64,000 bases of DNA. Source: a virus. Below the pieces are notes generated by a model that saw nothing but the letters and a program-made list of their open reading frames with translations, was not told the DNA's origin and did no database searches. The stretch covers positions 100,447 through 164,446 of the IMG/VR virus record IMGVR_UViG_3300031772_000002; one strand, 5' to 3'. How positions within the stretch are numbered: the stretch's first letter is position 1; each line of letters opens with the position of its first letter. Of the stretch, positions 10,898 through 47,047 are shown piece after piece. The position numbers and the translations under genes are program-made.

Positions 10898-10903
10898 AAA
10901 ATT

Positions 10904-13900
10904 ATGAATAACATTTTTAATAATCTAATAATTAACTGCTCAACTGTCGGAATTTATTACGGAAGTCCGATTGGTTTTGAGTATGATAATAATATTATTC
11001 AGGATTGTGGGTCAGGATGTGTAAATAGTAGTAGTTCAGAAACTAATTGTTTTCATAATTGTATTACTGATGATGCAACGATTCCTGGTGGAATAAATTG
11101 TCATCAAAATACAGAATTAATTTTTGAAGATAAAGTTAATGAAGATTATCGTTTGCATATAAGTGATATAGTTGCATATAGAAATAATGCAGGTATTGAC
11201 AAATCAGAATTATATAATTATGATATAAATGGAGATATCATTGATAACTCATGGTGCATAGGTCCATTTCATAAAACTCCTGAAATTACATTTAGTGTTG
11301 GAGACGATGTTAGTACAGATTTAAAAACAGGAAGTCCTACATATTCAATTACTAATTCAATTTTAACATTTAGTGTGCCACAAACTAATGAATTTTTATG
11401 TGCTGGATGCATTATAAACAGAGTTGGTCCTGATCCATATGTTTTACTTAAAAGAAAGATTGACAATAGTAATTGGGAAGTTGTCAATTCAGATGGAACA
11501 ATAGTTGCAAATAATTCAGGTCCTGTTACTATTAATACAATAAACTTTTTTACTAATGATGTAAATAATTTAGTATATAATGTTGCACATTCAGATCATA
11601 TCACTCAATATTTAGATTCAGACAATTTAACTTCCATGGATATTAAAATTAAAATAGCTTGTGCGAATGGAAGTTCTCCTGATGGATTTTATATAAGAGA
11701 TTTTACATGTGATAGATATAGAAATATTGAAATATTTGTTCCTGATATGTCTGATGATGATTATATTGAATCAAATTCAAATAGAAAGCATAATGGTGTT
11801 TGGGATTTACTTGATCATGTTCCAGATAAAGACAATTATCCAAATCAAACAGTTGGAGGAAATGTTAATTATACACCATATGTAGTATATGGAGGAGAAT
11901 TTGATGAGTCTAATTGTATTAATATAGCAGTTGATTGGTGTGTAATTAATGGATTACAAATAAGCGGTGGACAGTATGGAATATATGTTATAAATTCAAA
12001 TAATCCAGTTATTAAAAATAATATTATTAAAGATTGTATTGTTGATGCTGTTCATTTTGTCGATAAATGTTTAGATGGAATAGATTATTACGAATCCATA
12101 ATTACTAAAAATTTAATTTATAATTGTGGAGAAAATGGAATTAGATTAAATTATGGAAGATTTATTTCATATGATATAACAGCAGATTTTATTACTTTTT
12201 CTATTAACAATATAGAAAATTTTGATATTGACATTCATGAATTATTTAATAAATATACAGTTGAACTTAAACAATCAAGTTATGACACTATAATATGGTC
12301 TCCAGGAAAATTAACAATTAATTTTCAAGATGGAAATACAATGAGTGATGTATTATTATCTGATAAAATTTATGGAGAACCATGGGGAGTTATAACTGCA
12401 GGATCTGGAGTTTTAAGTGAACTAGAAACAACTAAAATGGATGAAGCTGATTCTTATGTAACAAATACTTCTGGAGATTTTAGAAAAAATCAAATTAAAA
12501 TTTATCATAACACAATTATTAAATGCAATCATGGAATTTATATAGAAACAGTTGACGATAGCAATACTAATGTTATAGCTTTGCTAAAAAATAATTTAAT
12601 AACTCAATGTATTAAAGAATGTTACTACACTTCTTTTGTAAATCCATCTTCAGTTTTAATAAATCATTGCGCGTCCGACGATTCATCTCTTGATAATTTT
12701 GTCGGAATGAATAATATTAACGATATAAATATTCAATTTGTAAATATATCAAATCATGATTATCGATTAACTTTAAATGATACTATTGATATGTATGGAT
12801 ACCATACATTATCAGACGAATGTTATCAAGTTGAATATGATAATGTATTTACTGAATATGAATCTATAAACAATTTAGTATTTGGATCAAATACATGGAA
12901 ATCAAGAAATAAAGAAATAAATTTTTCAATTGGAGCTAATACTGAAAATCTTGATGAAAATCCTGATGATAGAAAATTAACTATTACTAATGGAATTCTT
13001 ACTTTTACCGGAGATGGGATTAGTGATAATATAGGAATTGGAGATAAGATAACTTACGAAAACGGAGGAACAAAATATTGTTACCTAGCTGAACGAGGAA
13101 ATAATTATAATTGGCATGTTTTAGATGTTGATGGAAATGAAATATCCGATACATTAGAATCTGAAGTAACAAGTATTAAAAGAGTGTTTAACTCGTTAGC
13201 CTTTGCAATTTCAGATAGTGGTATAATAGTAGAATTTCCATATATAAGTGATAAAGATATTAATTCTAAAGAATTAAATCTATATGGTTGGTGTTATAAT
13301 GATAACGATACAGTAGATACTGGGGATATTATTATAAATGGATGGCTAACCCATCCTTTGTATAAATTTTATATTCAATCACCCGATAATATCAAAACCC
13401 AGTGCTCTACAATTCAATCTCATTCAGGAGTATGGGGAGGATATCGAATATCCTCATCTGATGCTGGAGGGTCTCCCAAGTGTCTTACAATTGATAACAA
13501 CTTCATTGTCATTAAAAGATTATCTTTAGAACGATACGATAATACCGGAGACGTTATTAATGCAGTTGGGAATGGTATTATTTTAGAAAATAATATTATT
13601 AGAAACGGAGATCGTGGAATTCTTTTAAATGGAAGTGATGTTGATAATTTAAATATTGCTTTTGGAAATATAGTGTATGATTCCGAATCTGTTGGCATTG
13701 ATTTAATATATACAAAATCTATTAATAATACAATAGTTAACTGTGGTATTGGAGTAAGATTAAATGATGTTGCCTGCAAAGCTATAAATAATATATCACA
13801 TGAAGATGACGGGGTTTGTTATAGCGGAAAACTTGATGGTGTAGAATCATGCTTAAGTAATGATGATACTGCAGGAACTTCTAATAATAATATGTCCAAT

Positions 13901-16900
13901 GTAACTATTGAGTTTAATGATAAAAATTTAAAAGATTTTCATATTAAAAGAAAAGATTGGTACGCAATAAACAATGGAGTTAATTTTGGATCTCTATGTT
14001 CACTTATTGTAAAAGATGGATACTTATATGAACAACCATTTTATTATAATATTGATGGTGAATTAATTAGTGATAATACGTGGTGCAGAGGGGCCGATAC
14101 AATTGAAGACATAGAAACTATTAATTTATATTTTTCTGCAAATAACGATACTTCTAATTTTATAACATTGGATCATGGAACAAATGGATATGTATCAATA
14201 GATCAAAGCATAGCAACATTTTCAACATCACAAATTGATGATCGTATTGGAGTTGGAGATAAATTAATATATACTGACGATGACGGTGAGCATATTTGCT
14301 ATTTATATGAAAAAATTTCAGATTTACAATGGATAGTAAAAGATTTATTTGGATTAGAAGTTACAAATTCCAGTAATGCAAATCTTAATAGTATAACAAG
14401 AGCATTTGTATCATCATGGTCAAATTTATTTTTAGCGTCATCAAATGAAAGTGTGCAGCAATTACTTGGAACAAGTGATAATCCTTTTATTTATTTAACA
14501 AAAGCAATGTATTGTATAAATATAGCTTTATATAAATATGACATAATTAATAGTTCAATTGTAATTTCTGGATTTATAACTGATATTAATCATTATATAA
14601 AATTATTTACTCCAGTTGATTTAAGAAAGCATTGTAATGCAAGTCAATCCCATCGAGGGTCAATAAAATACGAAAATCCTGCCAGAATACATTCAGAAGA
14701 TTCTAATGGAATATCCATTGAATGCAATTATACTATTATTGATGGAATAATTTGTTCAGCTATAGGATATGATGCGATATCTTTAATAGGTGTAACCGGA
14801 TGTGTTATTATAAATAATATATTATTCAATAGTAATAATGGCATAACATCTGATGAAAGTTGTATTCAAAATATTATTATTAATAACACTATATATAATA
14901 TTGTTTTTGATGGAATTAAAAGTGGAGTAAATGATATTATATTTAATAACACAGTAGATTCATGTGGATCTAAATGTTTTAATAATTATCCAAGAGATTT
15001 ATTAATTAATAATATAGGACAAAGGGCGGGAGATGTATGTTTTAATTATGGATATACTGAAAATTGTATAGCTTCAGATTTATCTTTAGTTAATTTTAAC
15101 AATAACATAAATGAACTTGAAGTATTATTTATTGGACGATATGGAGAAAGTGATCCTAATGAAGAAGATTATCATTTAACTCAAGATAATTATTTAGTAA
15201 AATGTGCCGGAAAAAGACTTGATGGCAATTCTTATTATAAATTTAATATAGATGGATCTTATAATTCAAGATCAACATGGTGGGACATAGGATCTCTTGA
15301 ATTTCAATCTAAACGTATTGTTTATTCGATTGGAATATCAACAGAAGATTTACAAACTAAATATTTAGGAAATAATACCCATTACACTATTACAGTAAAA
15401 AATGAAATAAGTTTTATAGAGTTTTCTAATCCACAAATAAATATTCATTTAGGTATAGGAGATAGAGTTTTTGACGATCATGGAACTTTTGAAAATGGAT
15501 GTTTCCTGATAGAAAAAATAACTGAATCAAAATGGATAGTGTATGATATTTTTGGAAATTCATTATCAGAATCATCAGGGATAATTGAAAAAATCAATAG
15601 AGTCTTTCCAACAATACGTGATGCATGTAATAATGAAACTGGATTTCCTTCAAACGAATTTTTAAATTCGTTAAGTTTATATGATTTGAATGTTAACGTT
15701 ACTCTCGCATGTTACAATGATGAAGGTGATTTCTTTTCATACCCTGGTGCATATATATACGATATAATTACTGAAGCGCACAATAACCTTAGAATAATTG
15801 TTCCTAATAATATAATAACTCAATGTAATAAAACACAAAGACATGATGGGGTATACGGGTATGGCAACAAAGGATTTAAAACTGAATTAACTATAATTGA
15901 TGGATCGTCAGATTCTGTTATACAAGCGTTCGGAATTAAATATTTAGAAATTGAAGGTTTACAAATAAAAGGACTTCATCAACTTTCTCATGGAATACAT
16001 ATTACTCAATGTAAACCATTTTATATTGGATACAATATAATACAAGGAATTTATGGAAATGGAATATTATGCCAAGATAGCGATAAAAAAAATATTATCG
16101 TCAACAATTTAATATATGATTGTAATGATGATGGAATAGGAATAGAATTTCTTAATACAGGTAATGGCTTAGACATTGATATTAATAACAATACAATAGT
16201 TAATTGCAGGCGAGGAGTTTACTTAAATAAAATAAATGATCCTTATATTACCGGATTGTCAGTTCGTCTAAAAAATAACTTATGTCAAGATTCAGAATAT
16301 AAAGATTATGTCGCTGAATATGAAAATCATTTTGGACATTTCTCTCTTAGTAAATGCATAAGCGGAGATGAAACAGCTTCAAATTTTGCCGGAACAATGA
16401 ATATAAGAAATAGATTTATTAATTTTATTGATCGAGATGGAAAAAATTTTAATCTTAATAATTTACTTGATGGTATAGCTGTTAATAATGCTCTGGATTT
16501 AAGCGGCGATAATGTTTTTCCATTCACAGACGATATTACCGGAACTATTAGAGATGTTGGAGAATATGATATAGGCGCGTTTGAAGTGGTTTTAATTTTT
16601 GGTTATGGAGAACTAATAGTAGGTCCAACTATTATTAGTGGAATAGGAATCATTGGAGAAGGATTTCCTGTTATTGATTTATACTTAAGAGGATTAGATG
16701 AATTTGATGAACCAGATTATATACCTTATATTGATCCAAAATATCAATTTATAAACATTGAAGGGTCAGACCCTGTATACGATTTAAATGCTTTTATTGA
16801 TAGGCTTGAATCGATTTATAGTTTAGTTATTCATGCCCAAGGCGGTGAAAAATTTCCAGGAATGTTTTCGTTTAATGTAAGGCCGGAAAATACTATTGTT

Positions 16901-17320
16901 GTTAAAACATATGAACCAGAATTAATACCACACGGACCAGCATCATTTGTTTATATTAATAATATAATTGATGATGAAAGTTCTCATTCTTTATTAACAT
17001 TTAAAAATTTAAAAATATACAGCAATGATAGTGGTGATACTTATAGTTTATTTAGTCCGTTTTGTCCAGTCACAGGAATTAGATTTGAAAACTGTATAAT
17101 TCAGGTAAATAATGATTGTATATCTCAGGCGCCTCATTCAACAATACAATCAATAAATAGTATTTTAATATTTAGAAATGATTCACAAGAAAATATATTT
17201 TGTTTAGTAAAAGATGGACCTGTAATACCAGTCGATGTTGAAAATTTAATAGCAAATTCAATTATATTAACAGGTTGTACTGATTTCGATGTAACGTTTG
17301 TAATAAACAAACTATCTTAA
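10904..17320 (+). CDS. Giant right-handed parallel beta-helix (pectin-lyase-like) repeat protein; tail spike/adhesin
   Basis: Four large repeated units (FSVG/FSIG/FSAN/YSIG...GIGD...W.V.D..G) each followed by NNxI/NCxxG beta-helix and DY.L...DIG motifs. Confidence 0.8.
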   Translation: MNNIFNNLIINCSTVGIYYGSPIGFEYDNNIIQDCGSGCVNSSSSETNCFHNCITDDATIPGGINCHQNTELIFEDKVNEDYRLHISDIVAYRNNAGIDKSELYNYDINGDIIDNSWCIGPFHKTPEITFSVGDDVSTDLKTGSPTYSITNSILTFSVPQTNEFLCAGCIINRVGPDPYVLLKRKIDNSNWEVVNSDGTIVANNSGPVTINTINFFTNDVNNLVYNVAHSDHITQYLDSDNLTSMDIKIKIACANGSSPDGFYIRDFTCDRYRNIEIFVPDMSDDDYIESNSNRKHNGVWDLLDHVPDKDNYPNQTVGGNVNYTPYVVYGGEFDESNCINIAVDWCVINGLQISGGQYGIYVINSNNPVIKNNIIKDCIVDAVHFVDKCLDGIDYYESIITKNLIYNCGENGIRLNYGRFISYDITADFITFSINNIENFDIDIHELFNKYTVELKQSSYDTIIWSPGKLTINFQDGNTMSDVLLSDKIYGEPWGVITAGSGVLSELETTKMDEADSYVTNTSGDFRKNQIKIYHNTIIKCNHGIYIETVDDSNTNVIALLKNNLITQCIKECYYTSFVNPSSVLINHCASDDSSLDNFVGMNNINDINIQFVNISNHDYRLTLNDTIDMYGYHTLSDECYQVEYDNVFTEYESINNLVFGSNTWKSRNKEINFSIGANTENLDENPDDRKLTITNGILTFTGDGISDNIGIGDKITYENGGTKYCYLAERGNNYNWHVLDVDGNEISDTLESEVTSIKRVFNSLAFAISDSGIIVEFPYISDKDINSKELNLYGWCYNDNDTVDTGDIIINGWLTHPLYKFYIQSPDNIKTQCSTIQSHSGVWGGYRISSSDAGGSPKCLTIDNNFIVIKRLSLERYDNTGDVINAVGNGIILENNIIRNGDRGILLNGSDVDNLNIAFGNIVYDSESVGIDLIYTKSINNTIVNCGIGVRLNDVACKAINNISHEDDGVCYSGKLDGVESCLSNDDTAGTSNNNMSNVTIEFNDKNLKDFHIKRKDWYAINNGVNFGSLCSLIVKDGYLYEQPFYYNIDGELISDNTWCRGADTIEDIETINLYFSANNDTSNFITLDHGTNGYVSIDQSIATFSTSQIDDRIGVGDKLIYTDDDGEHICYLYEKISDLQWIVKDLFGLEVTNSSNANLNSITRAFVSSWSNLFLASSNESVQQLLGTSDNPFIYLTKAMYCINIALYKYDIINSSIVISGFITDINHYIKLFTPVDLRKHCNASQSHRGSIKYENPARIHSEDSNGISIECNYTIIDGIICSAIGYDAISLIGVTGCVIINNILFNSNNGITSDESCIQNIIINNTIYNIVFDGIKSGVNDIIFNNTVDSCGSKCFNNYPRDLLINNIGQRAGDVCFNYGYTENCIASDLSLVNFNNNINELEVLFIGRYGESDPNEEDYHLTQDNYLVKCAGKRLDGNSYYKFNIDGSYNSRSTWWDIGSLEFQSKRIVYSIGISTEDLQTKYLGNNTHYTITVKNEISFIEFSNPQINIHLGIGDRVFDDHGTFENGCFLIEKITESKWIVYDIFGNSLSESSGIIEKINRVFPTIRDACNNETGFPSNEFLNSLSLYDLNVNVTLACYNDEGDFFSYPGAYIYDIITEAHNNLRIIVPNNIITQCNKTQRHDGVYGYGNKGFKTELTIIDGSSDSVIQAFGIKYLEIEGLQIKGLHQLSHGIHITQCKPFYIGYNIIQGIYGNGILCQDSDKKNIIVNNLIYDCNDDGIGIEFLNTGNGLDIDINNNTIVNCRRGVYLNKINDPYITGLSVRLKNNLCQDSEYKDYVAEYENHFGHFSLSKCISGDETASNFAGTMNIRNRFINFIDRDGKNFNLNNLLDGIAVNNALDLSGDNVFPFTDDITGTIRDVGEYDIGAFEVVLIFGYGELIVGPTIISGIGIIGEGFPVIDLYLRGLDEFDEPDYIPYIDPKYQFINIEGSDPVYDLNAFIDRLESIYSLVIHAQGGEKFPGMFSFNVRPENTIVVKTYEPELIPHGPASFVYINNIIDDESSHSLLTFKNLKIYSNDSGDTYSLFSPFCPVTGIRFENCIIQVNNDCISQAPHSTIQSINSILIFRNDSQENIFCLVKDGPVIPVDVENLIANSIILTGCTDFDVTFVINKLS

Positions 17321-17336
17321 AATTAGGATACTTTAA

Positions 17337-20300
17337 ATGACTGCACGATGGGATTTATTAAATTCTGTTCCATACGCTTCAGATATATCAAATTTTTATT
17401 TTACATGTTATTGTGAATTTGAAGGTGAAATTTATTTTGGATCATATTTTTGGAATAATAATTTTGCTACTGGAGATTATGGAACATTATATAAATTTAA
17501 TATTGGTACAGAAATTATATCTGCAGTTTGTACTTTACCAATTGTAGAATTAAGTCCAGGAGATGGGGTTGGTCAATATTTAATAACATCATTAGTGGTT
17601 TTTAATAACAGATTATATTTAATGTCTGGAAGTGCAATTTATGGTAACGATCCTCAAGAATCAAAAATTCTTGGCACAAGATTATATATACTAAATTCAA
17701 CTAAAGATGGAATAACAGAAGTTACAGATACTCCTCATGAAGTAGGAGAAAGAAAATTAATAGTTTTTGATGGAAATCTTTATTCAATTGATGTTTGGAG
17801 AAATTTGCCTGGAATGATTCCAGCCCCAGGAAGATTATATAAACTTGATGGATTTATATGGAATGTTGTAGCAACTTGGCCAGATTCTATTTGCTGGCCT
17901 GAAGATATAATTGTATTTGAAGATGAATTATATGTAATTGATAGCGCTAATTTATATAAATGGAATGGAGTTGATGCTTTTATTTTTGTAGCAAACGCAC
18001 CGTCATTTACTCCATTTGACGACTCAACTATATCTTATTTTAATATCTTACATTATCCTAGAACAACTTTATCAATTAATAATTCAAGATTGTATGCCGG
18101 AGGAAATATACAAGATGAAGAAAATCCATTATATTTTTGGGGATCAATTGTAAAATTAAATCTTGCTAAAGATTCTTTTGATATTGTTGGAATATATCCA
18201 CTAACAAGTTCTTATAAAGAAGGATTTATATCAAGTGTTTTATATAGAAATGAATTATTATTAGCAGGAACAGGGCAAGTAGGAACATATCCAGTTCCTG
18301 GTATTATTTATAAAGTTAATAATTTAGAAACTGGAATAGATTTTTCTTGTGATTTTAATAAATATAAATATGGAAATGTATTTGATCCTAATGATGAATG
18401 TAGAGATTGTTTTCCATTTATAAGAATAAACAAACTTGAATTTTTATATAAAATAATATCTTCTCCAAGTGATGCAATTAAAAATATTCAATGTCTTAAT
18501 AATACTATTTACATTGTTAATTTATATTCAGGACTAATGGCATATAGTTTTACTGAAGGTGCTGTAACTCCATTTACATTATTATACAATTCAACTAAAC
18601 CAACCTATACTATAACTTATGATGGTAATGGCAATACTGGAGGAACTGTTCCAGTTGATTCAACCATTTATAAAGAAAAAGATATAGAAACTGTAACTGT
18701 TTTAGGAAATACAGGAAGTCTTGTTAAAGTTGGATATACTTTTATAGGTTGGAACACAGCAGCGAATGGAAGTGGTACAAGTTATACTGGAGGAACTTTT
18801 TTTATAATTAGTTCAGCAAGTATAATACTTTATGCTCAATGGACTCTCAATGCTACATATACTATAACTTACAACGGAAATCTTAATACAGGTGGATCTA
18901 TACCAGTAGATTCAAATAATTATATATCAGGGGCCACGGCAACTGTTTTAGATAATGTTAATGATTTAATCAGAACCGGTAGAAGTTTTGTTGGATGGAA
19001 TACTGCGGCAAATGGAAGTGGAACAAATTATGCTCCCAGATCAACGTTTACTATTTCAGCAAATTTATTACTTTACGCTAAATGGACATCCAGTACAACT
19101 TATACAGTAACCTATGTAGCTTATGTTCCAACCGGACCTATTACAGGATCAGTACCAGTTGACAAAGTAAAATACACTTCTGGATCTACTGTAACGGTAA
19201 TGAAAAATGTTGGAAATTTAGTTATATCAAATTCATCAATATTTATTGGATGGAGTAAAACTCCCACAGCATCTACTATTTATGCACCTGGAACAACTTT
19301 TGCTATAAGTTCCTCTAATGTTACACTTTATTCCCGTTTTATTACTAATGAAAATTGGAATTCCTGGAGTGATGGAACTTATGTTTATGTAGCTGCTGGT
19401 TATCAAGGGTTGTATGCATTTGATGCCATTACAGGTGTAATGGTTGGATACGTAAATGCTGGTTATCCTAAAATTTATACAGTTTTTCATACTAATAGAT
19501 GCACAGGAGTATGGAGTGATGGTGTAAATGTATTTACAGCAGATACTATATCAGGTGGATTTTCTGGAATAAGAGCTTGGTCAATAAATCCTCTTAACCC
19601 ACCTTCTACATTTTTCAGTGTAGCTGGAAGTATCAATATATTAACAGGAGGCGGTGCAAATAATATAAGACCTTATGGATCTTATATTATCGCTTGTTGC
19701 TATACCGGATTATATGCTTATTCGTACAGTGCTGGAGTCTTTACTCCATTAGGAAGTATTGATCCTGGTGGAGAATCTTTAGATATATTTATATCACATC
19801 CTTATATTTTTGTTGCTAACGGTGCTGATGGAACAAGAGTGTATACTTTTAATGGAACTACTTTTATTCAAGTTGGATATCAGGCAAATGAAATTGGAGG
19901 CAATGCTTATAAAATATATTCAGATGGAACTAATGTTTTTGTTGCTGAAGGAAATTCTTTAAGAGTATTTGAATTGGATTTTGTAGGCCCCAACTTAATC
20001 ACTCCTATTGAAAGAATTTCAAATCCAGTAACTTATTATTCAGTAGCAGGTGATGGAAATTGTATTTTTACAGGCAATGGAACTTTTTATATACCAGATC
20101 TATTAACTTATAAATTTATACCTGAAGAAAGAGTAATATTTCCTAATGTTGAATCAGATCCTGAAAATGCAATGGTTGGAAGTCCAACATTTTCAATTTT
20201 ATATAATCATCCATATTATTCTATTTTAACATTTAGTATACCTCAACCAATTTTAGAACCAAATTCATTAGTATTTGTACCTGAAGGAATTAATCCTGAA

Positions 20301-32396: not shown

Positions 32397-34481
32397 ATGG
32401 CGAATGAAGGATTAGTTGGACCTGGAATAAAACCTCAAGGAGGCACAAGTCCGGCAGCATCTACATTTAATCGCGGATCTGTTCAATACGATACTCCATT
32501 TCTCGATATGACAAGTACATATATTCCAAAAACAATTAAAGGAATATTAAAATTTATTGCTGCATTTCTTTTTGGAGATAGTATAATATCTCAATGCGTA
32601 ATAAAATTATCAGAATATCCTATTACATCATTAATTTATAATGACGATAATGAACTAATACTTAAAAATGATAAAACTATTGAATTTTGGAAAGACTTTC
32701 TTGAAAATAAATTAAAAATTATTAACTCAATGAAACAGTCTGGAATGGATTTTTGGGGTTATGGAAATTCAATTATATCAATACACTATCCATTCAAAAG
32801 ATTTTTTGAATGTCCTAATTGTAAAGAAGATTTTCCATCAGATAGTGTAAAATATAAATTTGCAAATTATCAATTTGAAGGAAAATGCGTAAAATGCGAT
32901 AAAGAAGTTAAATTTAAAGCTTATGATAAAAACACTTCAGAAATTGAAAAATTTAATTTAATACATTGGGATTTATTATATATCGATATTAAATTTAATT
33001 GTATATCAGGAGATCATTTTTATTATTATACAATTCCTCAATATTTATCCAATGCTATTAAAAGTGGAGATATGGACATTGTTAAAACAACAAGACTCGA
33101 AATAATTAAATCAGTAGAAACAAACAAACCTTTAAAATTAATGAATGACAATGTCTTTCATATGAAAAGACTTGGCCCTCAATATATGTATCCATCAGAA
33201 CGAGGATGGGGAATTCCTGTTGTTATGCCTGTTATTAAAGACGCATTTCATAATAAAATATTAAAAAAAGCAAATGAAATGATAGCCTTCGATCATATAT
33301 TACCTTTAAGAATTTTATTTCCATTAGGTACTGGAGATATAAGTCCTCATGCAATAATAAATCTCTCTACATGGAAAAATAAAATAGAGCAAGAAATTGT
33401 TAAATGGAAAAGTGATAATAATTATATATCAATAGTTCCTTTACCAATTGGTATGGTTAATTTTAGTGGAGATGCTAAAGCATTGATGGTTACTCCTGAA
33501 ATTAAAGCTACTGAAGATACAATTATTACAGGAATTGGAGTTATTCCTGAAATAATAAAAGGAGGGGCTTCATGGTCAGGAAGTAATGTTTCTCTTAGAA
33601 TAGTTGAAAATACATTTATTAATCATAGAAAAGGTGAAGACGATTTATTACAATGGGTTATAAAAAAAATATCAACATATATTAATAAAGTTCCATGTAA
33701 AGTAAAAATGTCTGATTTTAAAATGGCAGATGATTTACAAAAAAAACAAATGTTATTACAATCAGCTATGGGATCACCATCGACTACATTAATATCAAAA
33801 TCAACAATGACAAAAGAGTTAGGGTATGAACCTCAAAAAGAATATGAATTAAAATTAAAAGAACTCGTTCAAAATATTGAATTACTTATTCGTGAAAGTG
33901 AAGGAAATGCTGAATCTCAGGGAGCAGCGACTGTTATTGGAGCTATGTATAATGCAAATGCTCAAATAGCTGAAAAAGAACGACTTGAATCAAAAGAAAG
34001 AGAAATGCAGACCAAACGTAATAAAGAAGACCAAATAAGAAATGCTGAGAGTGCCGATGTTGTTGCTCAAGAAATAGATACTATAGGTTATGAAAAAGGT
34101 TATCCGCCAGGAATAATAGAGTTGCCTCAATTAATAATGTTAATTACGCAACGTTTTGTTAATCTTATTAAAGCAGATATAAATGAATTTAAATTACGTA
34201 TGTTAACTATGAAAAATTCAATGCCTGCATTGTATGAAATAATTTATAATAATTTAAAAGAAATGAATCTTATAACTGCAGATTTAATTCCAGATTTAGG
34301 TGTAGCTCAAAAATATACTCCTGGAGAGATTCCTACGTATATACAGGGCGATACTTATGCATCAAGTGAACCAAACCCTGTTGAAATGGGATTGTCTCCT
34401 GGTGAAGCTAATACAAGCATTAAATACAATAAGCCACTTCCTGAAGCTAGACCTCCAGTTTCACCAAACGCTCCTATTTAA
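32397..34481 (+). CDS. Probable portal protein with Zn-ribbon insertion
   Basis: DFWGYGNS, VFHMKR, GWGIP...PLRIL, IITGIGV.PEII.G, V.M.DFKM.DD; CPNC/CVKC insert. Confidence 0.7.
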   Translation: MANEGLVGPGIKPQGGTSPAASTFNRGSVQYDTPFLDMTSTYIPKTIKGILKFIAAFLFGDSIISQCVIKLSEYPITSLIYNDDNELILKNDKTIEFWKDFLENKLKIINSMKQSGMDFWGYGNSIISIHYPFKRFFECPNCKEDFPSDSVKYKFANYQFEGKCVKCDKEVKFKAYDKNTSEIEKFNLIHWDLLYIDIKFNCISGDHFYYYTIPQYLSNAIKSGDMDIVKTTRLEIIKSVETNKPLKLMNDNVFHMKRLGPQYMYPSERGWGIPVVMPVIKDAFHNKILKKANEMIAFDHILPLRILFPLGTGDISPHAIINLSTWKNKIEQEIVKWKSDNNYISIVPLPIGMVNFSGDAKALMVTPEIKATEDTIITGIGVIPEIIKGGASWSGSNVSLRIVENTFINHRKGEDDLLQWVIKKISTYINKVPCKVKMSDFKMADDLQKKQMLLQSAMGSPSTTLISKSTMTKELGYEPQKEYELKLKELVQNIELLIRESEGNAESQGAATVIGAMYNANAQIAEKERLESKEREMQTKRNKEDQIRNAESADVVAQEIDTIGYEKGYPPGIIELPQLIMLITQRFVNLIKADINEFKLRMLTMKNSMPALYEIIYNNLKEMNLITADLIPDLGVAQKYTPGEIPTYIQGDTYASSEPNPVEMGLSPGEANTSIKYNKPLPEARPPVSPNAPI

Positions 34482-34492: not shown

Positions 34493-34577
34493 TTTTTTTT
34501 AGTTATTAACCGTTATTATCTGGTATAACTATAATGTTAATGGAATTTACCATTAACAATTCAAGGAGTAGATTATG
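34493..34577 (+). promoter_or_regulatory. Repeated hairpin-promoter/RBS cassette, copy 1
   Basis: TTTTTTTAGTTATTAA..TTATTATCTGGTATAACT..TGTTAATGG-N6-CCATTAACA..AGGAGTAGATTATG; near-identical copies on - at ~62633-62718 and ~63327-63412. Confidence 0.75.
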
Positions 34578-34961
34578 AGATATAGGGCATATCGCATATT
34601 GAATGGAAGTCAAGAGTCTGAGTCAATAATATTTGATTCTAAAGAGAAAATGGTAGAGTATTTTGATGGCGTTTCCACCGCGGCGTGGGATTATGAAAAA
34701 GTGGAAGAAAAGAACGGTTTTGAGAAATTCAAAATTGAACGAATCCCATACACGTTCAAATTCTCCCCATCACGGGGAGAAAAGTTATACCAGGATATAC
34801 CTCACATGGGGGAGTGGTGGCCTGTAGTGCCTAATAGTACATTTGAGGGAGCAGGTGGTAGCATTCTCTTTAGTCGGTGCCGGCACGCTGTCGTTGTGGA
34901 CAGTGATGGGCAATGGATTTACATTGCCACTGGTTTGTGCAACTTTATATCAGTTGCATAA
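34575..34961 (+). CDS. Hypothetical cassette gene
   Basis: Own promoter cassette, RBS and terminator; higher GC than its neighbours. Confidence 0.75.
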   Translation: MRYRAYRILNGSQESESIIFDSKEKMVEYFDGVSTAAWDYEKVEEKNGFEKFKIERIPYTFKFSPSRGEKLYQDIPHMGEWWPVVPNSTFEGAGGSILFSRCRHAVVVDSDGQWIYIATGLCNFISVA

Positions 34962-34964: not shown

Positions 34965-34995
34965 AAAAGCGTATTAACAAATACGCTTTTTTTTT
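34965..34995 (+). terminator. Rho-independent terminator
   Basis: AAAAGCGTATT-AACA-AATACGCTTTT plus T run. Confidence 0.8.
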
Positions 34996-35222
34996 ACCTA
35001 TCAAATCTTATAACTAAAAAAAATCTATTAGGTAAAAAACAGCCCCAACAGGGGCTTCTACTAATTTGTATAAGTTATTTTTTTTTTTTAAATAAACGGA
35101 AAACTAACTTGAATATGATGGTATTTTTCACTTTTTACTCCTTTCATTTTTTTTAAAAGTAAAAAAATATGTTAGCTTTCCAGCATTAAAAATATTTAAA
35201 ATATTTTAATGCGGGCTTAAAC

Positions 35223-35257
35223 AAAAAAAAGAGTCAATCGTATTGATTGACTCTTTT
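35223..35257 (-). terminator. Rho-independent terminator of the Ubl operon
   Basis: AAAAGAGTCAATC-GTATT-GATTGACTCTTTT with poly-U on the - strand. Confidence 0.8.
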
Positions 35258-35276
35258 GTTATCAAATTATAAACTA

Positions 35277-35774
35277 TTATTTTTTATTTCTATTACCTTT
35301 CATTGACTGAGAAAGTATTAACCGAACCATACCTTCACCTTCATTTGGATAGATTATCTCATTACTGTTCATAGGATTTCCACCCGTTGATTTTCTATAT
35401 TCATACGCATCTTTTCCATCGGCTTTAAAATATTGACCTTTTTTTTCTTCTGGTAATAGATCAATAATTTGTTTGATTGACATGCCAACATTAGCATTTA
35501 CAGTATCAAAATTTGGAACTCCCAATCTGATTAACTGAACTTGAAAATCATTTCCATTACCCTTTACATTCTCACCAATGATAACTGTATCGCCATCTTT
35601 CAATTGGGTATTATTATTAATTCTTTCTCCGCTCCTTGTTATCGTTTCACTACTTTTAATTTTTTTATTTGCCACTTCAAGCAAGAATTCTACTTTAGGA
35701 TTAGACGAAACCTCATACGATTTAACATCAGCACCTAAAGAAACTAAAGTAACGATTATTGGACTACCATTCAT
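35277..35774 (-). CDS. Tandem ubiquitin-like (beta-grasp) protein
   Basis: Two related halves (V.L..LG...), LKDGDTVII motif, each half ending KGN; follows the E1 gene. Confidence 0.75.
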   Translation of the reverse strand: MNGSPIIVTLVSLGADVKSYEVSSNPKVEFLLEVANKKIKSSETITRSGERINNNTQLKDGDTVIIGENVKGNGNDFQVQLIRLGVPNFDTVNANVGMSIKQIIDLLPEEKKGQYFKADGKDAYEYRKSTGGNPMNSNEIIYPNEGEGMVRLILSQSMKGNRNKK

Positions 35775-35784
35775 AAAAAAACTC

Positions 35785-36522
35785 CTATACTTTTAATAAT
35801 GTTTCACTGTCATTAAATCTTCTCATAAAAAAAGATTCAGGATATAAAGTAAAAATATATTCATTCCACATTTTTACTTCTGGTTGATCACAATACTTTT
35901 GAACAAAATGTTGAATCATTTTAGAACATGCAACACTGGCAATATATGTAGCTGTTATTATAATTGATTGGCTGGTTCCGCACAAGGACACATCAGCTTC
36001 CTCATCTGTACATAATGTTTTTTTCCACGCATCTACTTCTTCACCGATATGAGGATTAAACGCATAGATTCGACCTCCACGCAATCCCATTCTTGTTTCT
36101 ATTACCATATCGGTATTGAAGCTATATTTTATGCAGTTCTCAAATATTTCTTTACGACTCTTCATCGTATCTGTCAATAAGAAAACGTAAGTTGATTGAA
36201 CATCTTTGTCTTCAGTAACTATCATTCGATTGAATGTTTGTACTGAAAAATTACACTTACGTTTTATAATATCGTTCATAGCTTCTACTTTTGGCTTACC
36301 AACATCTTGTGGATAAAAAGATTGATTTGCCAAATTATGCTCTTCAACAATATCACCATCAAATAATTTAAGAACTCCTTGTTCATTATTACTATCTCCC
36401 CACCCTAATTGGGCAAGCATTAAAGCAATGGCACTTCCAGTAGCTCCGACCCCTACCAAAGAAATACTTTTATTTCTAATCATTTTTGGATTAATTAATT
36501 TTGATTGTCTACTATAATTCAT
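35785..36522 (-). CDS. ThiF/MoeB-family E1-like adenylyltransferase
   Basis: VGVGATGS nucleotide loop, DGDIVEEHNLANQ, GKPKV, TDTMKSR, candidate catalytic Cys in SLCG. Confidence 0.9.
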   Translation of the reverse strand: MNYSRQSKLINPKMIRNKSISLVGVGATGSAIALMLAQLGWGDSNNEQGVLKLFDGDIVEEHNLANQSFYPQDVGKPKVEAMNDIIKRKCNFSVQTFNRMIVTEDKDVQSTYVFLLTDTMKSRKEIFENCIKYSFNTDMVIETRMGLRGGRIYAFNPHIGEEVDAWKKTLCTDEEADVSLCGTSQSIIITATYIASVACSKMIQHFVQKYCDQPEVKMWNEYIFTLYPESFFMRRFNDSETLLKV

Positions 36523-37550
36523 AATAATTCCTTAAATTCATTATTATTATTATTATTAGATTTTAATTTATCTAATAATTCTATATATTCATTTAATTGA
36601 ATTATTTTATTATCTTCATAAAATACCACTTGTCTTTTTCCATCAACAAATTCAATTTTGCTACTTAAATTTTTTTTTTTATTATTGTTATATTTATGTC
36701 TCATATCAAAATTATCATATTCATGAAAATCATTATTATTATTTATATAACCATTTCTATTATCAAACAAAGACTGTTGCTTATTAAAATTTATATCAGT
36801 TTTAATATTAATTTCTTTTAATTTCAAAACCTTATTTACTATTTTATTATAAATAGATGAATCTGATATTGCTTTTGAAATTTTATCTACAACTTCGTTA
36901 ACTGATATTTCTTCTTGATCATATTTATTTATTATAATTTTTATTTCATTTATTTTTTTCAAATTAAGTTCTTCGTCTTCTTTTTCAATTTCCCATTTAA
37001 TATTATCAAATCTGATATTTTTAAATGGATCAAAAAAAGACACTGACATTTCTTTATCATCACATATTACTCTTATTAAATAAGAATTTGTACTTTTAAT
37101 TCGATCAATAGTCTGACTTTCATCCTGGTTGCTTGGACTAGTACCAGACATGTGTTTGTGTCCCCAAAGTTTTATTTTTCCTATTTCTTCCATTTTATTA
37201 TTATTAATCATGTACTGAATTAACTCAATTTCTCCATCGGAACTAATAGTACATGTTCCAGTATTAGCCTCTGAGTGTTTTGGATAATAGACATTTTTAA
37301 TATAAAATTTATAATCACCAATTTCTTCTACAGTTGCATAAAATCCAACTTCATGATTATGATTTTCAATAATAGCACCAATCCACATCATAGACTTTTT
37401 ACTGAAAATAATAATTGGAGAAATTTTATGTTCAGGAATTAACTGGCTATAAGTGGTATTTATATTTCTTTTGCTAAAACTTCTCATAGTTAACCTTTCA
37501 TGTTTTTTACACAAGGATACCATGCCCCTTGTGGCCATGGTAGTTTGCAA
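36519..37550 (-). CDS. JAB/MPN+ metallopeptidase (deubiquitinase-like)
   Basis: HEVG ... WGHKHMSGTSPSNQD (E...HxH...SxxD). Confidence 0.8.
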   Translation of the reverse strand: MQTTMATRGMVSLCKKHERLTMRSFSKRNINTTYSQLIPEHKISPIIIFSKKSMMWIGAIIENHNHEVGFYATVEEIGDYKFYIKNVYYPKHSEANTGTCTISSDGEIELIQYMINNNKMEEIGKIKLWGHKHMSGTSPSNQDESQTIDRIKSTNSYLIRVICDDKEMSVSFFDPFKNIRFDNIKWEIEKEDEELNLKKINEIKIIINKYDQEEISVNEVVDKISKAISDSSIYNKIVNKVLKLKEINIKTDINFNKQQSLFDNRNGYINNNNDFHEYDNFDMRHKYNNNKKKNLSSKIEFVDGKRQVVFYEDNKIIQLNEYIELLDKLKSNNNNNNEFKELL

Positions 37551-37556
37551 AATCTC

Positions 37557-38663
37557 TTATATTACATTAGGAAAAAACTTAATAAATACACCTAATTCAT
37601 CATTCATATTAGGTTGAGTAATAAACCTTATTATAATATCAAATATCATAGAGATATTTTTTAAAGCAAATGCTTTAATTAATGATTCCGTTACTACGTC
37701 CCCTAAACACATTGTTTCATTTCTAAAAACATGACCACACTCCAAAATTCTTCCTGAATAACTATCATAAAATCCTCTACTCATATTATGAATAGTTATA
37801 AAATTAGTAACTGTTCCTAATTCTCCAAAAAATAGTAAAATGTTGACTCCTATTCTCATTCTACCTATTTTTTTAAAAAATAACTCTCCATCATTTTCTT
37901 CTTTATAATCAAATACTTTTTCTTGTGTAATCAACTCTTTAGTAATGATTACAATTTCATCCTTAGTAAAACCTATTTCTTCTATATTATCATTAATTTT
38001 TAATTTATCAATATCATTGACAAATTTATCAATAAATTTATTATTATTAATACATACAAAACAATCATGAATTGATTGTTCTAACATAATTAATTCAGTA
38101 ATTAATCTTTTCTTTTTATTTTCCAAATCTTCAAGACGTTTTGAAGTATTAATTGTTTCTTTAAATATTTTTGAAATATAAGTTTTTAATTTATCATTAA
38201 AAAGAATGAATACTGAATTAGATCTAAACCAAAGATCAGATTTATCAGTATTTTCTTTATACCCTTCTTCATAATTAATTTCTTTATCTTCTTCTAAAAT
38301 TTCTAAAAATTTCTGATCTTCATTAGAAGTAATTTCTTCAACACAATCATCTTCAATATTAGAAATAATTTCATCAACACAATCTTCTTTATCTCCTACA
38401 GAATTAGCATTATTTGGAATTAAATTTTTTATACAAATTTCATCTGGATAATTATTATCAATAATATTAAGATTGTCAAATATCTTTTTTATTTCAGGAT
38501 TATAATTAATTAATAAATCTATAAATTCCTTCATTTTTTCTTTATCTACAGATACTAATGCTGCATCACTTGTATAACTTAAAATAGTAGAAATTTTAAA
38601 AATATCTTGAGATACTTTAAAAAAATCCACTATTTCATTTAATATAGTAACAATAATTTTCAT
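37557..38663 (-). CDS. Coiled-coil plus prokaryotic E2-like domain protein
   Basis: GHVFRNETMCLGD followed by an amphipathic helix; paralogous to the C-terminus of 38682..40787. Confidence 0.6.
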   Translation of the reverse strand: MKIIVTILNEIVDFFKVSQDIFKISTILSYTSDAALVSVDKEKMKEFIDLLINYNPEIKKIFDNLNIIDNNYPDEICIKNLIPNNANSVGDKEDCVDEIISNIEDDCVEEITSNEDQKFLEILEEDKEINYEEGYKENTDKSDLWFRSNSVFILFNDKLKTYISKIFKETINTSKRLEDLENKKKRLITELIMLEQSIHDCFVCINNNKFIDKFVNDIDKLKINDNIEEIGFTKDEIVIITKELITQEKVFDYKEENDGELFFKKIGRMRIGVNILLFFGELGTVTNFITIHNMSRGFYDSYSGRILECGHVFRNETMCLGDVVTESLIKAFALKNISMIFDIIIRFITQPNMNDELGVFIKFFPNVI

Positions 38664-38681
38664 AAAAAACCTTTCTTAAAT

Positions 38682-40787
38682 TTAAATTTTTATAGGTATA
38701 AAATCTCTTATTTTATCATCAAAAACTTTTTCCTTTTCAGAAATTTTGTACATAGTATTATAATCTAGCAAATCATCATCCTTTAATGCAATTTCTTTAG
38801 TAACTTCTGGCCAATTCACTACATGCTTACCAGCCGCATCACTTGTATTTACAGATTCAAGAAATATAATAATTTGATAAACTAGAGAATAAAGATCTCT
38901 ATTTCTATAAGAAGTTATCAATTGATTTCCAAGATTTCCATGGCAAATTCTACCATCACTAAAAACATGAGGGGCATTCATGTTATTCTCGTAACCATTA
39001 ATAGTATGTTTAGTATTGATAATCTTAATTGTATTATTTTCATCATATTTATTCGAATTAATTCCTATTGTTATTAGAAAAGTTCCAATATCATACCATT
39101 TATCACCAACATTAACATATAAATTTTTAGTATTAACATTAACAGTATCGTTTTTCAGTGATATAGATAAAACTTTTTTTAAATTTAAACATTCATCGTA
39201 TGATGATAAAGCTTTTTCTTTTTGTTTAACTATAAAGTCATTAAAATCAAAATGACTTATTTTTTCCATAGTTCTATCCATAAGTTTTGAATATTCCAAT
39301 ACTTCATTATAACTTTTTAAATATTTTGATCTATATTCATTATAAATTTCTTTTAAATCTGAAATATATTTTGTACTATTATCTATAACGTACTCAACAT
39401 ATTTTTCTCTATCTATAATATTTTTAGACAATATATAATTTTTATCAATTTCAAAAATTTCTTTTAATGTATATTTTTTTAAATATCTATTTGAAAATTC
39501 TTTAAAAATTAATTTCATACATAAATTATGATTTTCTTTTAACAATTTATCACTTTGTAAAATAGCTACATTACTAACAATTGGTATCATAAAAAATACC
39601 ATATTTTCTTTTTGAATTCCCCATATTAGGTTGGAAATATGATCCTTATAAACCATATTAAAATTATTAAATGATGAAGTTTCTTTTGATTTATTTTTTA
39701 ATACGAATATACTATATAATTCGTAACCAAAACAATTTATATTAACATTTCTACGTTCAACACAGTCAAATCCAATAGTATTATAATTAAATGCATATAA
39801 AGGATAGTTCATTCTTTCAATAAAAAAAAATAAAATATTTTTTTTTATTTCTTGAACTATATTTATATCAAAATTATTATTTAAATATGTTGCTATATCA
39901 TGTATAAATCTAAATTCAATAATAATAATATGTTTTTTAATATTTTCAGCAATAGATTTTATTTCATAAAAAAAATCTTTTAAATATTCAGAATCTACTT
40001 TAGTTAAAAAATATGTAACTAAATATGAAGAATCTTCATAATTTCCAATATTTTTTTCATCAACAGAGTATTGTTTTTTATATAAATGAATAAGTAAATA
40101 GTTATTTATATATTTTAATACTTCAGATTTAAAATTTATTATTTTAATTTCTTCATCATCAACTGGAAGTATTGATGAATTTTCATCTTTAGCAATTATA
40201 TTTTCATTTATAGATGAAGCCTCAATACTATCAAAATGCTGTGCGCTAACTAATTTACTTTTATCTAAAACACTATCTAATTCATCTAAAATTTGATCTA
40301 ACTGTTCATTATGTATAACTTCAGTTTGATGTTCTTGTTCAGACGCTATATTTGGTAAACTTTGCTCTATTGGAGTTATTAATCTCTTGATTTCCAGTAC
40401 AACATCATCAAATATAAATCTATTACCACTATTATTTAAGCATATAAAATTATATAACTCTTCATTTAAATTTGAAGGAGTTAATTCAAATAATATATTA
40501 TCATTAATCCAAAATGGATGTAATATTATTTTCACACCACTTATATTTGAATTGACTGTTTGTATTTTAATATCGTATACTTTTTCATAATCCTTACATG
40601 ATGAAAGTTTATCCTTTATTTTATTACAATTAAAAATTTCTTTAATAATATTTATAATTTTTAATGTATCAGTTCTACTAACTATCGCTATTTCTTCATT
40701 TGAATTAAGTGTATATGGAACATAGTCAACACCAATATTTTGAGCTAGCCATTTTTCACAAAAAGCAAACATATTATCACATTCCAT
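38682..40787 (-). CDS. Large protein with C-terminal prokaryotic E2 (UBC-fold) domain
   Basis: APHVFSDGRICHGN (PHV..G.IC.G E2 signature) after a coiled coil. Confidence 0.7.
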   Translation of the reverse strand: MECDNMFAFCEKWLAQNIGVDYVPYTLNSNEEIAIVSRTDTLKIINIIKEIFNCNKIKDKLSSCKDYEKVYDIKIQTVNSNISGVKIILHPFWINDNILFELTPSNLNEELYNFICLNNSGNRFIFDDVVLEIKRLITPIEQSLPNIASEQEHQTEVIHNEQLDQILDELDSVLDKSKLVSAQHFDSIEASSINENIIAKDENSSILPVDDEEIKIINFKSEVLKYINNYLLIHLYKKQYSVDEKNIGNYEDSSYLVTYFLTKVDSEYLKDFFYEIKSIAENIKKHIIIIEFRFIHDIATYLNNNFDINIVQEIKKNILFFFIERMNYPLYAFNYNTIGFDCVERRNVNINCFGYELYSIFVLKNKSKETSSFNNFNMVYKDHISNLIWGIQKENMVFFMIPIVSNVAILQSDKLLKENHNLCMKLIFKEFSNRYLKKYTLKEIFEIDKNYILSKNIIDREKYVEYVIDNSTKYISDLKEIYNEYRSKYLKSYNEVLEYSKLMDRTMEKISHFDFNDFIVKQKEKALSSYDECLNLKKVLSISLKNDTVNVNTKNLYVNVGDKWYDIGTFLITIGINSNKYDENNTIKIINTKHTINGYENNMNAPHVFSDGRICHGNLGNQLITSYRNRDLYSLVYQIIIFLESVNTSDAAGKHVVNWPEVTKEIALKDDDLLDYNTMYKISEKEKVFDDKIRDFIPIKI

Positions 40788-40886
40788 ACTAATACTATCT
40801 CCTTATTTAAAAAAAAATAAATTTTCATTACATTATTATTACATAAAATTATAATAAATCACACGTTATAATGAATTTTTATTAAT

Positions 40887-45835: not shown

Positions 45836-47047
45836 ATGCTATTTAAAAAGTCATTTAAGTTTCAATTAAAGCTCAATCACGAACAACTTCAGCACTGCTC
45901 CCGTTTTGCAGGATGCTGCAGATTTGTCTGGAATAAGAGTCTTGCTCTTAAAAAAACTCTTTGGGAAAATACTAAATCTTCTATTTCTCAGTTTGAACTT
46001 AATAATCTACTCGTTCAATGGAAAAAAGAGTTTCCCTGGCTTAATGATGCTCCATCTCAGGCTCTTCAACAGGTTAATAAAGATTTAGACCAGGCATATA
46101 AAAATTTCTTTCGGCATGGAGGATTTCCTCAATTCAAGAAAAAAGGAAAGCATGATTCTTTCAGGCTACCTCAGGGAATTAATATTCTTTCTGATTTAAA
46201 TCATAAAACTGGTGTTGTCCAGCTTCCTAAAATCGGAAATGTTCAGTTCATTAAAACCAGAGCTATTGAAGGCACTGTTAAGAATGCTACAATATCCAGG
46301 AATGCAGGTAAATGGTATATAAGCTTTAATTGTGATGCCGTTGATATTCAGCACGATAATAAAGGTCGTGAACCTGTTGGAATAGATCGGGGTGTATCTG
46401 TATTTGCAATGATCTCAAATGGTGATAAAATTGAAGCTAAAAATCCTTTAAAAAGTAATATAAAAAAGCTTAAAAAGATTCAAAGAAAGCTTTCACGGAA
46501 AAAGAAATTTTCAAAAAACTGGAATAAGCAGCGTTTAAAGATTTCACGTTTTCATAATCACATTTCTAATATTCGAAAGGATGTTTTGCATAAATCATCC
46601 ACTTCAATTGCCAAAAACCACGGTACAATTGTGATGGAAGATTTGAAAACATCAAATATGATACGCTCAGCTAAGGGAACTACTGAGAATCCCGGAAAAA
46701 ATGTTAAGGCAAAATCCGGGTTAAACAGAGCAATTCTTGACCAGGGCTGGCATATGTTCAAAGTCATGCTTGAGTATAAATCTAAATGGTATGGCAGCAT
46801 ATTAATTTTAGTTAACCCACAGTACACAAGTCAGAAGTGTTTTGCTTGCGGCTATACTGATTCAGAGAATAGAAAGACTCAAGAACTTTTTGAATGTATT
46901 AAATGTGGTCACAGTGAAAACGCTGATATAAATGCTGCAAAGAATATATTGGCTGCGGGACTCGCAGTGTCCGCCTGTGGAGAAGCTCCGTTAGGGGCTC
47001 CTGTGAAGCAGGAACCTGAAGTACGAAAAGTAGCACTCGCTGCATAA
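45836..47047 (+). CDS. tnpB: TnpB RNA-guided endonuclease
   Basis: RuvC GIDRG / VMEDL / NADINAA present; Zn finger CFAC...CIKC. Confidence 0.95.
   Translation: MLFKKSFKFQLKLNHEQLQHCSRFAGCCRFVWNKSLALKKTLWENTKSSISQFELNNLLVQWKKEFPWLNDAPSQALQQVNKDLDQAYKNFFRHGGFPQFKKKGKHDSFRLPQGINILSDLNHKTGVVQLPKIGNVQFIKTRAIEGTVKNATISRNAGKWYISFNCDAVDIQHDNKGREPVGIDRGVSVFAMISNGDKIEAKNPLKSNIKKLKKIQRKLSRKKKFSKNWNKQRLKISRFHNHISNIRKDVLHKSSTSIAKNHGTIVMEDLKTSNMIRSAKGTTENPGKNVKAKSGLNRAILDQGWHMFKVMLEYKSKWYGSILILVNPQYTSQKCFACGYTDSENRKTQELFECIKCGHSENADINAAKNILAAGLAVSACGEAPLGAPVKQEPEVRKVALAA

Follow-up and report, generated by a model that had tools for sequence, protein, structure and literature searches.

A candidate ubiquitin-like conjugation cassette in the genome of a large tailed phage

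The IMG/VR virus record IMGVR_UViG_3300031772_000002 is a genome of 164,446 bp with direct terminal repeats, rated 100% complete, and the stretch analysed here (the window, 64,000 nucleotides) comprises its bases 100447–164446; all coordinates given below are window positions. On the minus strand of the window, running 40787→35277, lie five close-packed open reading frames (ORFs), whose products we read as two E2-like proteins (E2L-long and E2L-short), a JAB/JAMM-type metallopeptidase candidate (JAB), a minimal E1/ThiF adenylating enzyme (E1) and a tandem ubiquitin-like protein (Ubl) (Table 1). Judging from sequence comparisons and structural models, we consider it probable that this cassette provides a large tailed phage with a self-contained pathway for the conjugation of a Ubl to proteins.

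Five packed genes on the minus strand

A preliminary description, made from the letters of the DNA alone, had proposed that five co-directional, closely spaced genes closed by a terminator encode such a pathway and that the virus carries all of it. The ORFs, and a hairpin with a T-run after the last stop codon, lie where that description placed them; the virus genome is complete, with terminal repeats; and the motifs it had picked out in both E2-like proteins, JAB and E1 are all present, without variation among 12 non-redundant related cassettes. Chance ORFs were rejected, given the synteny and the residues that stay constant among relatives.

The genes are separated by 18 nt (E2L-long and E2L-short), by 6–69 nt (E2L-short and JAB, depending on whether the TTG or the ATG start of JAB is taken) and by 10 nt (E1 and Ubl), and JAB and E1 have 4 nt in common. 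Homologues and the ESM Atlas record favour the ATG start of JAB over the TTG. An AAGGAG ribosome-binding site (RBS) precedes the first ATG of the cassette, at 40787, and terminator-like sites in the region number 7 against 1.0 expected.

Table 1. Features of the cassette in window positions, with the identity of each protein to its counterpart at L006, a locus of a related phage
Feature	Position	Strand	Description	Identity to L006
AT-rich intergenic region upstream of cassette (~95 nt)	40788..40886	-	AAGGAG RBS; possible promoter	
E2L-long	38682..40787	-	701-aa ORF	83%
E2L-short	37557..38663	-	368-aa ORF	64%
JAB/JAMM-type metallopeptidase candidate	36519..37487	-	322 aa from ATG at 37487; 343 aa from TTG at 37550	64%
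Minimal single-domain E1/ThiF adenylating enzyme	35785..36522	-	245 aa	86%
Tandem ubiquitin-like (di-β-grasp) precursor	35277..35774	-	165 aa	70%
Intrinsic terminator closing cassette	35227..35257	-	13-bp stem, 5-nt loop, T8 run; 20 nt past last stop codon	

Folds and invariant residues of the five proteins

The adenylating enzyme matches Pfam ThiF (PF00899) over residues 13–217 with 75.5 bits, against a cut-off of 28.1 (E 4.5e-21). PHROG 15670 also matches (2e-20), as do, over the Rossmann part, the PADLOC E1-E2 models of Cap2 type (1.8e-12) and BilD (1.1e-4, residues 18–106). When a profile of five E1 orthologues was searched against the PDB, the best matches were the active adenylation domains of human UBA6 and of yeast and human UBA1 (6e-8), followed by MccB, PaaA, UBA5 and ThiF, with MccB, PaaA and ThiF at 4e-6 to 7e-5. 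The best solved relatives are hence eukaryotic, ahead of ThiF/MoeB, and the segment LGWGDSNNEQGVLKLFD was aligned with LGVGTS-KEKGMITVTD of UBA6. All 12 related cassettes keep the GxGxxG glycines (G24, G26 and G29), D55 and D57, N66, K78, D118 (the Mg-binding Asp of the TD motif), R123 and C181. The last of these, the endpoint of the motif GVGATGS...C181 (codon 35980–35982), lies in the crossover-loop region in the context DEEAxVSxCG, and the nearby C171 varies. In our reading C181 is the candidate catalytic Cys, placed before the helix that would correspond to that of ThiF C184, the PDB alignments having ended short of it. At 245 residues, this E1 looks to be among the smallest that still appear thioester-competent.

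No family model in Pfam, PHROGs or PADLOC matched the Ubl. Its AlphaFold2 (AF2) model, built from a nine-sequence alignment with a predicted local distance difference test (pLDDT) of 81.9, comprises two β-grasp units at residues 7–68 and 76–156, each of β-β-α-β-β order, joined by a disordered K-G-N linker. A Foldseek search of the PDB returned 116 matches at E up to 1e-3, with linear di-ubiquitin, ISG15, FAT10 and polyubiquitin at E 1e-7 to 1e-5 and probability 1.0. Both halves finish in KGN (G72 and G160), and a four-residue tail, RNKK, stands after the last one. Among relatives the K-G-(N) never varies at either domain end; 8 of the 14 end exactly at KGN and the rest carry tails of 1–30 residues. 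G160 itself is invariant and always has at least one residue behind it, usually Asn, so that adenylation would need prior processing. Variable tails after an invariant KG(N) are the pattern of a capped precursor, the form in which eukaryotic genes encode polyubiquitin.

The two E2-like proteins share a paralogous C-terminal stretch of ~130 residues, recognized by BLASTP (E 3e-4) and captured in a joint profile. In E2L-long, an N-terminal region (~1–535) with no fold match in the searches made, and with no usable ESM Atlas match for residues 200–535, is followed by a C-terminal E2/UBC-like domain at ~540–665 (nt 38793–39170), where the motif HVFSDGRICHG holds H607 and C615 (codon 38943–38945). 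E2L-short is composed of an N-terminal α/β domain (1–78), an acidic disordered linker (81–150), long helices (171–222) and a UBC/RWD-like domain at ~208–367 (nt 37563–38042), with H311 and C319 (codon 37707–37709) in the motif HVFRNETMCLG.

An AF2 model of E2L-short from a 41-sequence alignment reached a pLDDT of 80.8 overall and above 90 in the C-terminal domain, where a helix (209–222) is followed by strands (227–293) and further helices (322–363). Its top PDB match by Foldseek is UbcH8, followed by many E2s, all at E 0.2 or higher. In VIA-align the model aligned to E2S with Z 6.6 and a root-mean-square deviation (rmsd) of 3.6 over 120 residues, and then to UbcH10 (Z 6.4), UBE2D2 (6.2), Ubc13 (5.9), CdnG-E2 (5.7) and Cap2 (5.0); about 30 of the top 50 rows are E2s, with Z 5.0–6.6, 106–130 aligned residues and rmsd 3.1–4.8.

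Searched against 1.84 billion representatives, the joint profile found 956 proteins at E ≤1e-3 and 263 at ≤1e-10, the 956 being representatives of clusters formed at 50% identity. By length they form two classes, of ~340–370 and 600–700 residues. Three metagenome proteins of ~650 residues (P0110, P0128 and P0130) have two E2-like domains fused, at residues ~305–428 and ~520–648. Across 154 domain instances the signature reads T...IG...H-x7-C-x-G...F...N-x-x-D-x-x-G...WP, with the His at 98%, the Cys at 99%, the Gly after it at 98% and the Asp at 98%; the invariant positions of E2L-short are T241, G267, H311, C319, G321 and D355. By eye, a helix and then xPNxxDxxG in these sequences resemble the helix-2/PNxxxP region of UBC domains. 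The E2 assignment draws on the combination of consistent fold matches, a near-invariant His/Cys pair between the β-meander and the helices, and neighbours of E1, Ubl and JAB type. We read E2L as an undescribed E2-like domain family with 956 representatives, none of the 41 tested having a Pfam model.

The JAB candidate carries the motif EVGFY...HKHMSGTSPSNQD, and its E46, H110-x-H112, S119 and D122 (numbering of the 322-residue form) are invariant in 12 of 12 related cassettes, with a loop length 1–2 residues off the canonical spacing. The protein appears to be laid out as an N-terminal catalytic domain followed by a poorly conserved tail. In the ESM Atlas it shows a feature score of 0.95 to viral clusters with 22–29% Prok-JAB members, and its model a structural TM score of 0.73 to a cluster with 23% such members. 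This is the weakest of the five calls, because it draws on the invariant motif and the ESM Atlas neighbours and the hidden Markov model (HMM) searches failed.

The preliminary description's reading of the parts is supported. It had named the lack of a UBC fold or of a β-grasp fold as grounds for refutation, and both fold comparisons came out in its favour. A ThiF/E1 with a candidate catalytic Cys and a double β-grasp fold for the 165-residue protein were both borne out. Of its two E2-type proteins, the 368-residue one shows a UBC-like fold at modest scores and the 701-residue one joins it as a paralogue, and its JAB metallopeptidase has the expected E/HxH/S/D residues; E2 and JAB family models did not match these proteins.

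Relatives of the cassette and its mosaic divergence

Phage replication genes surround the cassette, with a VRR-NUC-type nuclease and an SNF2 helicase upstream, and a plus-strand gene set is convergent on it, with the gene for a 694-aa protein at 32397–34481 (+). That protein belongs to no Pfam or PHROG family and served as a dependable lineage marker: an IMG/VR scan with it recovered 21 contigs at 47–100% identity, 15 of which extend 5 kb or more downstream. Of these 15 testable contigs, 14 carry all five cassette genes, again convergent with the 694-aa gene, and the cassette is nearly universal in this phage lineage. JGI metagenome contigs of 12–208 kb likewise hold the five genes in this order, with the 694-aa gene beside them. 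In one relative (L016), an inserted OrfB_IS605/Cas12f-like TnpB gene (10781–11947) separates the cassette from the 694-aa gene.

Among 50,697 GenBank phages there was no match to it by blastn or to either E2L domain by tblastn, and a scan of 185,579 cellular genomes (one per bacterial or archaeal species), seeded with two short peptide patterns from the E1 alignment, found no close relative, only four distant E1s at 31–39% identity over ~100 residues. IMG/VR scans seeded with E1, with the 701-aa protein or with its C-terminal domain yielded nothing useful, the peptide patterns being poor, and three diverse E2L matches that we traced to their contigs gave 2 kb only.

Comparison with the phage behind L006 reveals a mosaic. 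The SNF2 helicase, the nuclease, the 694-aa protein and a 248-aa protein are 97.6–100% identical between the two phages (99.6% for the 694-aa and 248-aa proteins), and the cassette proteins are more divergent (Table 1). The divergence is confined to two sharp-edged blocks, one at 35200–38600 that covers Ubl, E1, JAB and E2L-short (46–90% nucleotide identity) and one at 40000–40800 that covers the first ~260 residues of E2L-long (33–79%). Between the blocks, the middle and the E2-like domain of E2L-long stay at 97–99%, and the flanks are at 98–100%. Block edges fall inside genes, such that E2L-long is 52% identical over its first 200 residues and 98% over its last 166. From these alignments, the blocks look like recombinational allele replacement of a co-adapted set, together with a separate swap of a putative targeting module. 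Such a pattern is typical of genes involved in conflict or host interaction, and bears circumstantially on the biological role.

The 694-aa gene and the cassette are separated by an inserted 128-aa gene at 34575–34961 (+), which a phage that is 98–100% identical on either side lacks, as gaps in the alignment show. It has no family match and is flanked by terminator-like hairpins at 34535–34558 and 34965–34990. An IS605-type transposase at 45836–47047 (+) (PHROG 506, E 1e-116) breaks the minus-strand replication module. Structural genes nearby encode Fib_succ_major and CarboxypepD_reg domains; these and a GC content of ~27% hint at a host among the Bacteroidota or Fibrobacterota.

Relatives of E1 at 26–31% identity (tblastn 1e-9 to 5e-16) also occur in 76 GenBank phage records, including crAss-like Steigviridae (crAss001, cr85_1 and DAC15), Flavobacterium FpV4-like phages and Xanthomonas jumbo phages (PhiXhv-15). 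The loci we inspected lie in the replication module in every case: 2981–7337 in cr85_1 (L002), 2616–7718 in FpV4 (L001) and 3238–6612 in PhiXhv-15 (L003). In cr85_1 and FpV4 the gene adjoining ThiF gives a weak Prok-JAB match, and by eye we see an N-terminus that resembles a Ubl and ends in KSG(G), and a protein with YMHSH...C-x-G; PhiXhv-15 has ThiF and a C-L-G-motif protein only. The annotations of these genes go no further than ‘thiamine biosynthesis protein’ and ‘metalloprotease domain’. Profiles of the cassette E2L, JAB and Ubl families found no matches in those phage genomes, and hhalign gave a probability of 0.2% for the two candidate E2 families, that of the cassette and that of the crAss-like and FpV4 phages. 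These neighbourhoods may represent an analogous, unrecognized pathway, with a related E1 and other families that sequence profiles do not link to the cassette. Because E1 is the sole sequence connection, we keep it as a lead.

Weighing a phage-borne conjugation pathway

The cassette has counterparts in several known systems and belongs to none of them. Closest in its parts is Bil, in which an E1 and an E2 act with an ISG15-like Ubl of two domains whose C-terminus is uncovered by a JAB (PMC11601596). The cassette shares these four functions and the setting of phage–host conflict. It differs in being encoded by the virus and not the host, in an E1 that is a single adenylation domain where that of Bil is IAD-AAD-CYS, in having two E2-like proteins with large extra regions and in a Ubl that ends in K-G-N. 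Membership of Bil was rejected, as the PADLOC models of BilA, BilB and BilC were unmatched at E up to 1 and BilD matched weakly, over the Rossmann part. With the Cap2/Cap3 pair of type II cyclic-oligonucleotide-based antiphage signalling systems (CBASS), the cassette shares the E1-E2 match of its E1, the alignment of the E2L fold to CdnG-E2 and Cap2, and a JAB partner. It has a dedicated Ubl, however, whereas CBASS conjugates the cyclase itself, and membership was rejected because the genome has no CD-NTase (no SMODS match anywhere in it) and its E1 and E2-like genes are separate, with no E1-E2 fusion. Bub combines a diverged E1, E2 and Ubl with a pre-Ubl cut after a conserved Gly and a single-domain E1 of homodimer type (PMC11601596). 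The cassette likewise has E1, E2-like and Ubl proteins with a peptidase, and an E1 of one adenylation domain. Bub uses Tyr/Ser oxyesters without a catalytic Cys, whereas the Cys is invariant in the cassette E1 and near-invariant in the E2L domains; this conservation, and the lack of a DUF6527 serine protease among the five proteins in a Pfam scan, led us to reject membership of Bub.

The general idea is not new for bacteria. Operons that join E1, UBC-like and JAB proteins to Ubls of two or three repeats, some with RWD-like E2s, were described by Iyer, Burroughs and Aravind in 2006 (PMC1779556). Those operons reside on bacterial chromosomes and mobile elements, and the Pfam families that stem from them (Prok-E2, Prok-JAB and Multiubiquitin) were unmatched by the cassette proteins at E up to 1. 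In phages, the only established use of a JAB–Ubl pair is that of lambda and T1, in which gpK (TAPK, JAB and NlpC) cuts after the C-terminal Gly of the Ubl of gpI (TAPI), in lambda as the tail tip is assembled (PMC1779556; PMC12908700). This pair has no E1 or E2, and its Ubl is fused to a structural domain in the tail module, whereas the Ubl of the cassette is free-standing and tandem. The other precedents that we found are E1-like genes in an Asgard virus and JAMM peptidases in Borgs. A 2021 overview of jumbo phages does not mention E1, JAB or Ubl genes, and in the literature covered we found no phage E1-E2-JAB-Ubl set, with the caveat that most subscription journals lay outside that coverage and an earlier description is possible. 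We read the virus-borne set, the E2-like family, the minimal E1 and the K-G-N-capped tandem Ubl as new here.

In the pathway we propose, JAB would trim the di-Ubl precursor after the Gly of K-G-N. The cut would certainly remove the C-terminal cap, and possibly a further cut between the domains would yield two modifiers. E1, probably as a homodimer, would then adenylate the exposed Gly and take it up as a thioester on Cys181, from which the Ubl would be handed to the conserved Cys of both UBC-like proteins (C615 in E2L-long, C319 in E2L-short). Target choice would fall to their long and unrelated N-terminal regions, which would make the two proteins E2/E3 hybrids, and JAB may also reverse the tag. 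That some relatives fuse both domains suggests that the two E2L proteins may act as a pair. More speculatively, and less likely than not in our view, the two modifiers cut from one precursor at K-G-N could each have their own E2L protein, with the swappable N-terminus aimed at host defence or takeover.

Several observations weigh against the proposed conjugation pathway. The E2 fold scores are middling (Z <8, Foldseek E ≥0.2), in a range that VIA-align itself cautions can reflect a common arrangement, and non-catalytic RWD domains score equally well (Knl1, Z 6.9). The motif H-[VI]-x-x5-C-x-G has H-V-F where E2s have H-P-N, with both Pro and Asn absent, and that C319 and C615 stand where E2s have their active-site Cys is inferred from the succession of helices and strands and not from a superposition. 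Neither E2L-long nor E2L-short matched a Pfam model of the E2 type (UBC PF00179 or Prok-E2) at E up to 1, nor did the 41 homologues, and both were without a match in the rest of Pfam, PHROGs and PADLOC; PDB profile searches with the E2L and 701-aa families produced nothing relevant, with matches confined to a coiled-coil region. The Ubl, too, matched no sequence model in Pfam, PADLOC or the PDB. The JAB protein had no HMMER match in Pfam (PF14464 and PF01398) or the PDB and none in PHROGs or PADLOC, a Prok-JAB search of the genome came back empty, and 1 of 12 JAB homologues matches Prok-JAB, at E 0.2. E1 is missing the Arg of the N-L-x-R-Q motif, reading NLANQ against NLNRQ in UBA6; this Arg is also absent from the phage E1s of cr85_1, FpV4 and PhiXhv-15. 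One contig, L037 (IMGVR_UViG_3300028920_000061), has the 694-aa gene at 55% identity and no cassette there, the 9 kb downstream (11000–19980) holding small ORFs and none of the five genes, which makes it a naturally cassette-less relative for comparison. No E3 and no target could be identified, and we infer cleavage, thioester transfer, targets and purpose alike.

How else might such a set be used? A cassette convergent to the structural module, near-core in its lineage and placed beside the 694-aa gene in the relatives that carry it could serve virion assembly or maturation, with the Ubl as a removable chaperone or tag attached to phage structural proteins in trans by E1 and E2, and the lambda pair offers a phage precedent for JAB with Ubl (PMC1779556; PMC12908700). 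We nevertheless regard this as unlikely. The cassette shares its strand with the replication module and follows the direction of the SNF2 helicase and nuclease genes, it has no NlpC/P60 domain and its Ubl is not fused to a structural domain. Moreover, near-identical 694-aa and 248-aa neighbours beside cassettes that are only 64–86% identical are hard to square with co-evolving structural partners. The same divergence, in mosaic and fast-evolving blocks typical of conflict genes, would suit a module for superinfection exclusion or defence, in which the same chemistry is aimed at competing phages, much as Bil tags a phage tail protein; the parts list of ISG15-like di-Ubl, E2, JAB and E1 is that of Bil (PMC11601596), and E1 has its weak PADLOC matches to BilD and Cap2. 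Most defence cargo is sporadic, however, whereas the cassette keeps one fixed genomic position in 14 of 15 relatives, and the unmatched BilA, BilB and BilC models and the return of only four distant E1 relatives from the one cellular scan, seeded with two short E1 peptide patterns, also count against what we judge a rather improbable reading.

The chemistry itself could be of another kind. E1 consists of one domain, of ThiF type and comparable in size to ThiF and MoeB, with MccB, PaaA and ThiF among its PDB matches, and bacterial sulfur clusters of JAB, ThiS/MoaD and E1 exist (PMC1779556), so one could picture a ThiS/MoaD-type thiocarboxylation for a thio-modified nucleotide or cofactor, or an MccB/PaaA-like action on a peptide, with the Cys-bearing UBC-like proteins relaying sulfur or serving as inert scaffolds. 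This is highly improbable in our view, given a carrier that is a tandem ubiquitin/ISG15-like protein and not a single ThiS or MoaD, two UBC-like domains with near-invariant His and Cys, and an E1 that scores best against ubiquitin E1s. The preliminary description had seen no sulfur-transfer genes next to the cassette, and nowhere in the 164-kb genome is there a rhodanese, a cysteine desulfurase or a PP-loop ATPase; for want of such partners the sulfur relay was rejected.

Returning to protein conjugation, the preliminary description had put forward three possible purposes: tagging of host or phage proteins, countering of host Ubl defence, or exclusion of competing phages. The cassette is nearly universal in its lineage but its blocks have been exchanged or have diverged between near-identical phages, and we therefore think that its targets would be host or rival-phage proteins (to take over the host, counter defences or exclude rivals) and not a housekeeping substrate. 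We favour a host- or rival-directed use over virion assembly. All components are small and look soluble, which would allow direct reconstitution of the pathway, and block-wise replacement in otherwise identical phages offers natural allele sets for studies of specificity.

If the more speculative reading with two modifiers is correct, the cassette would be the first complete virus-encoded Ubl conjugation cascade in prokaryotic viruses, and if the ThiF–JAB neighbourhoods of crAss-like and Flavobacterium phages turn out to be analogous, the principle would be common in phages of Bacteroidota. Prokaryotic Ubl conjugation, as in type II CBASS, Bil and Bub, has been characterized as anti-phage immunity, and a full set carried by a phage would reverse that picture. 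Bacterial viruses may thus use protein tagging offensively or for their own organization, as eukaryotic viruses use the ubiquitin of their hosts.

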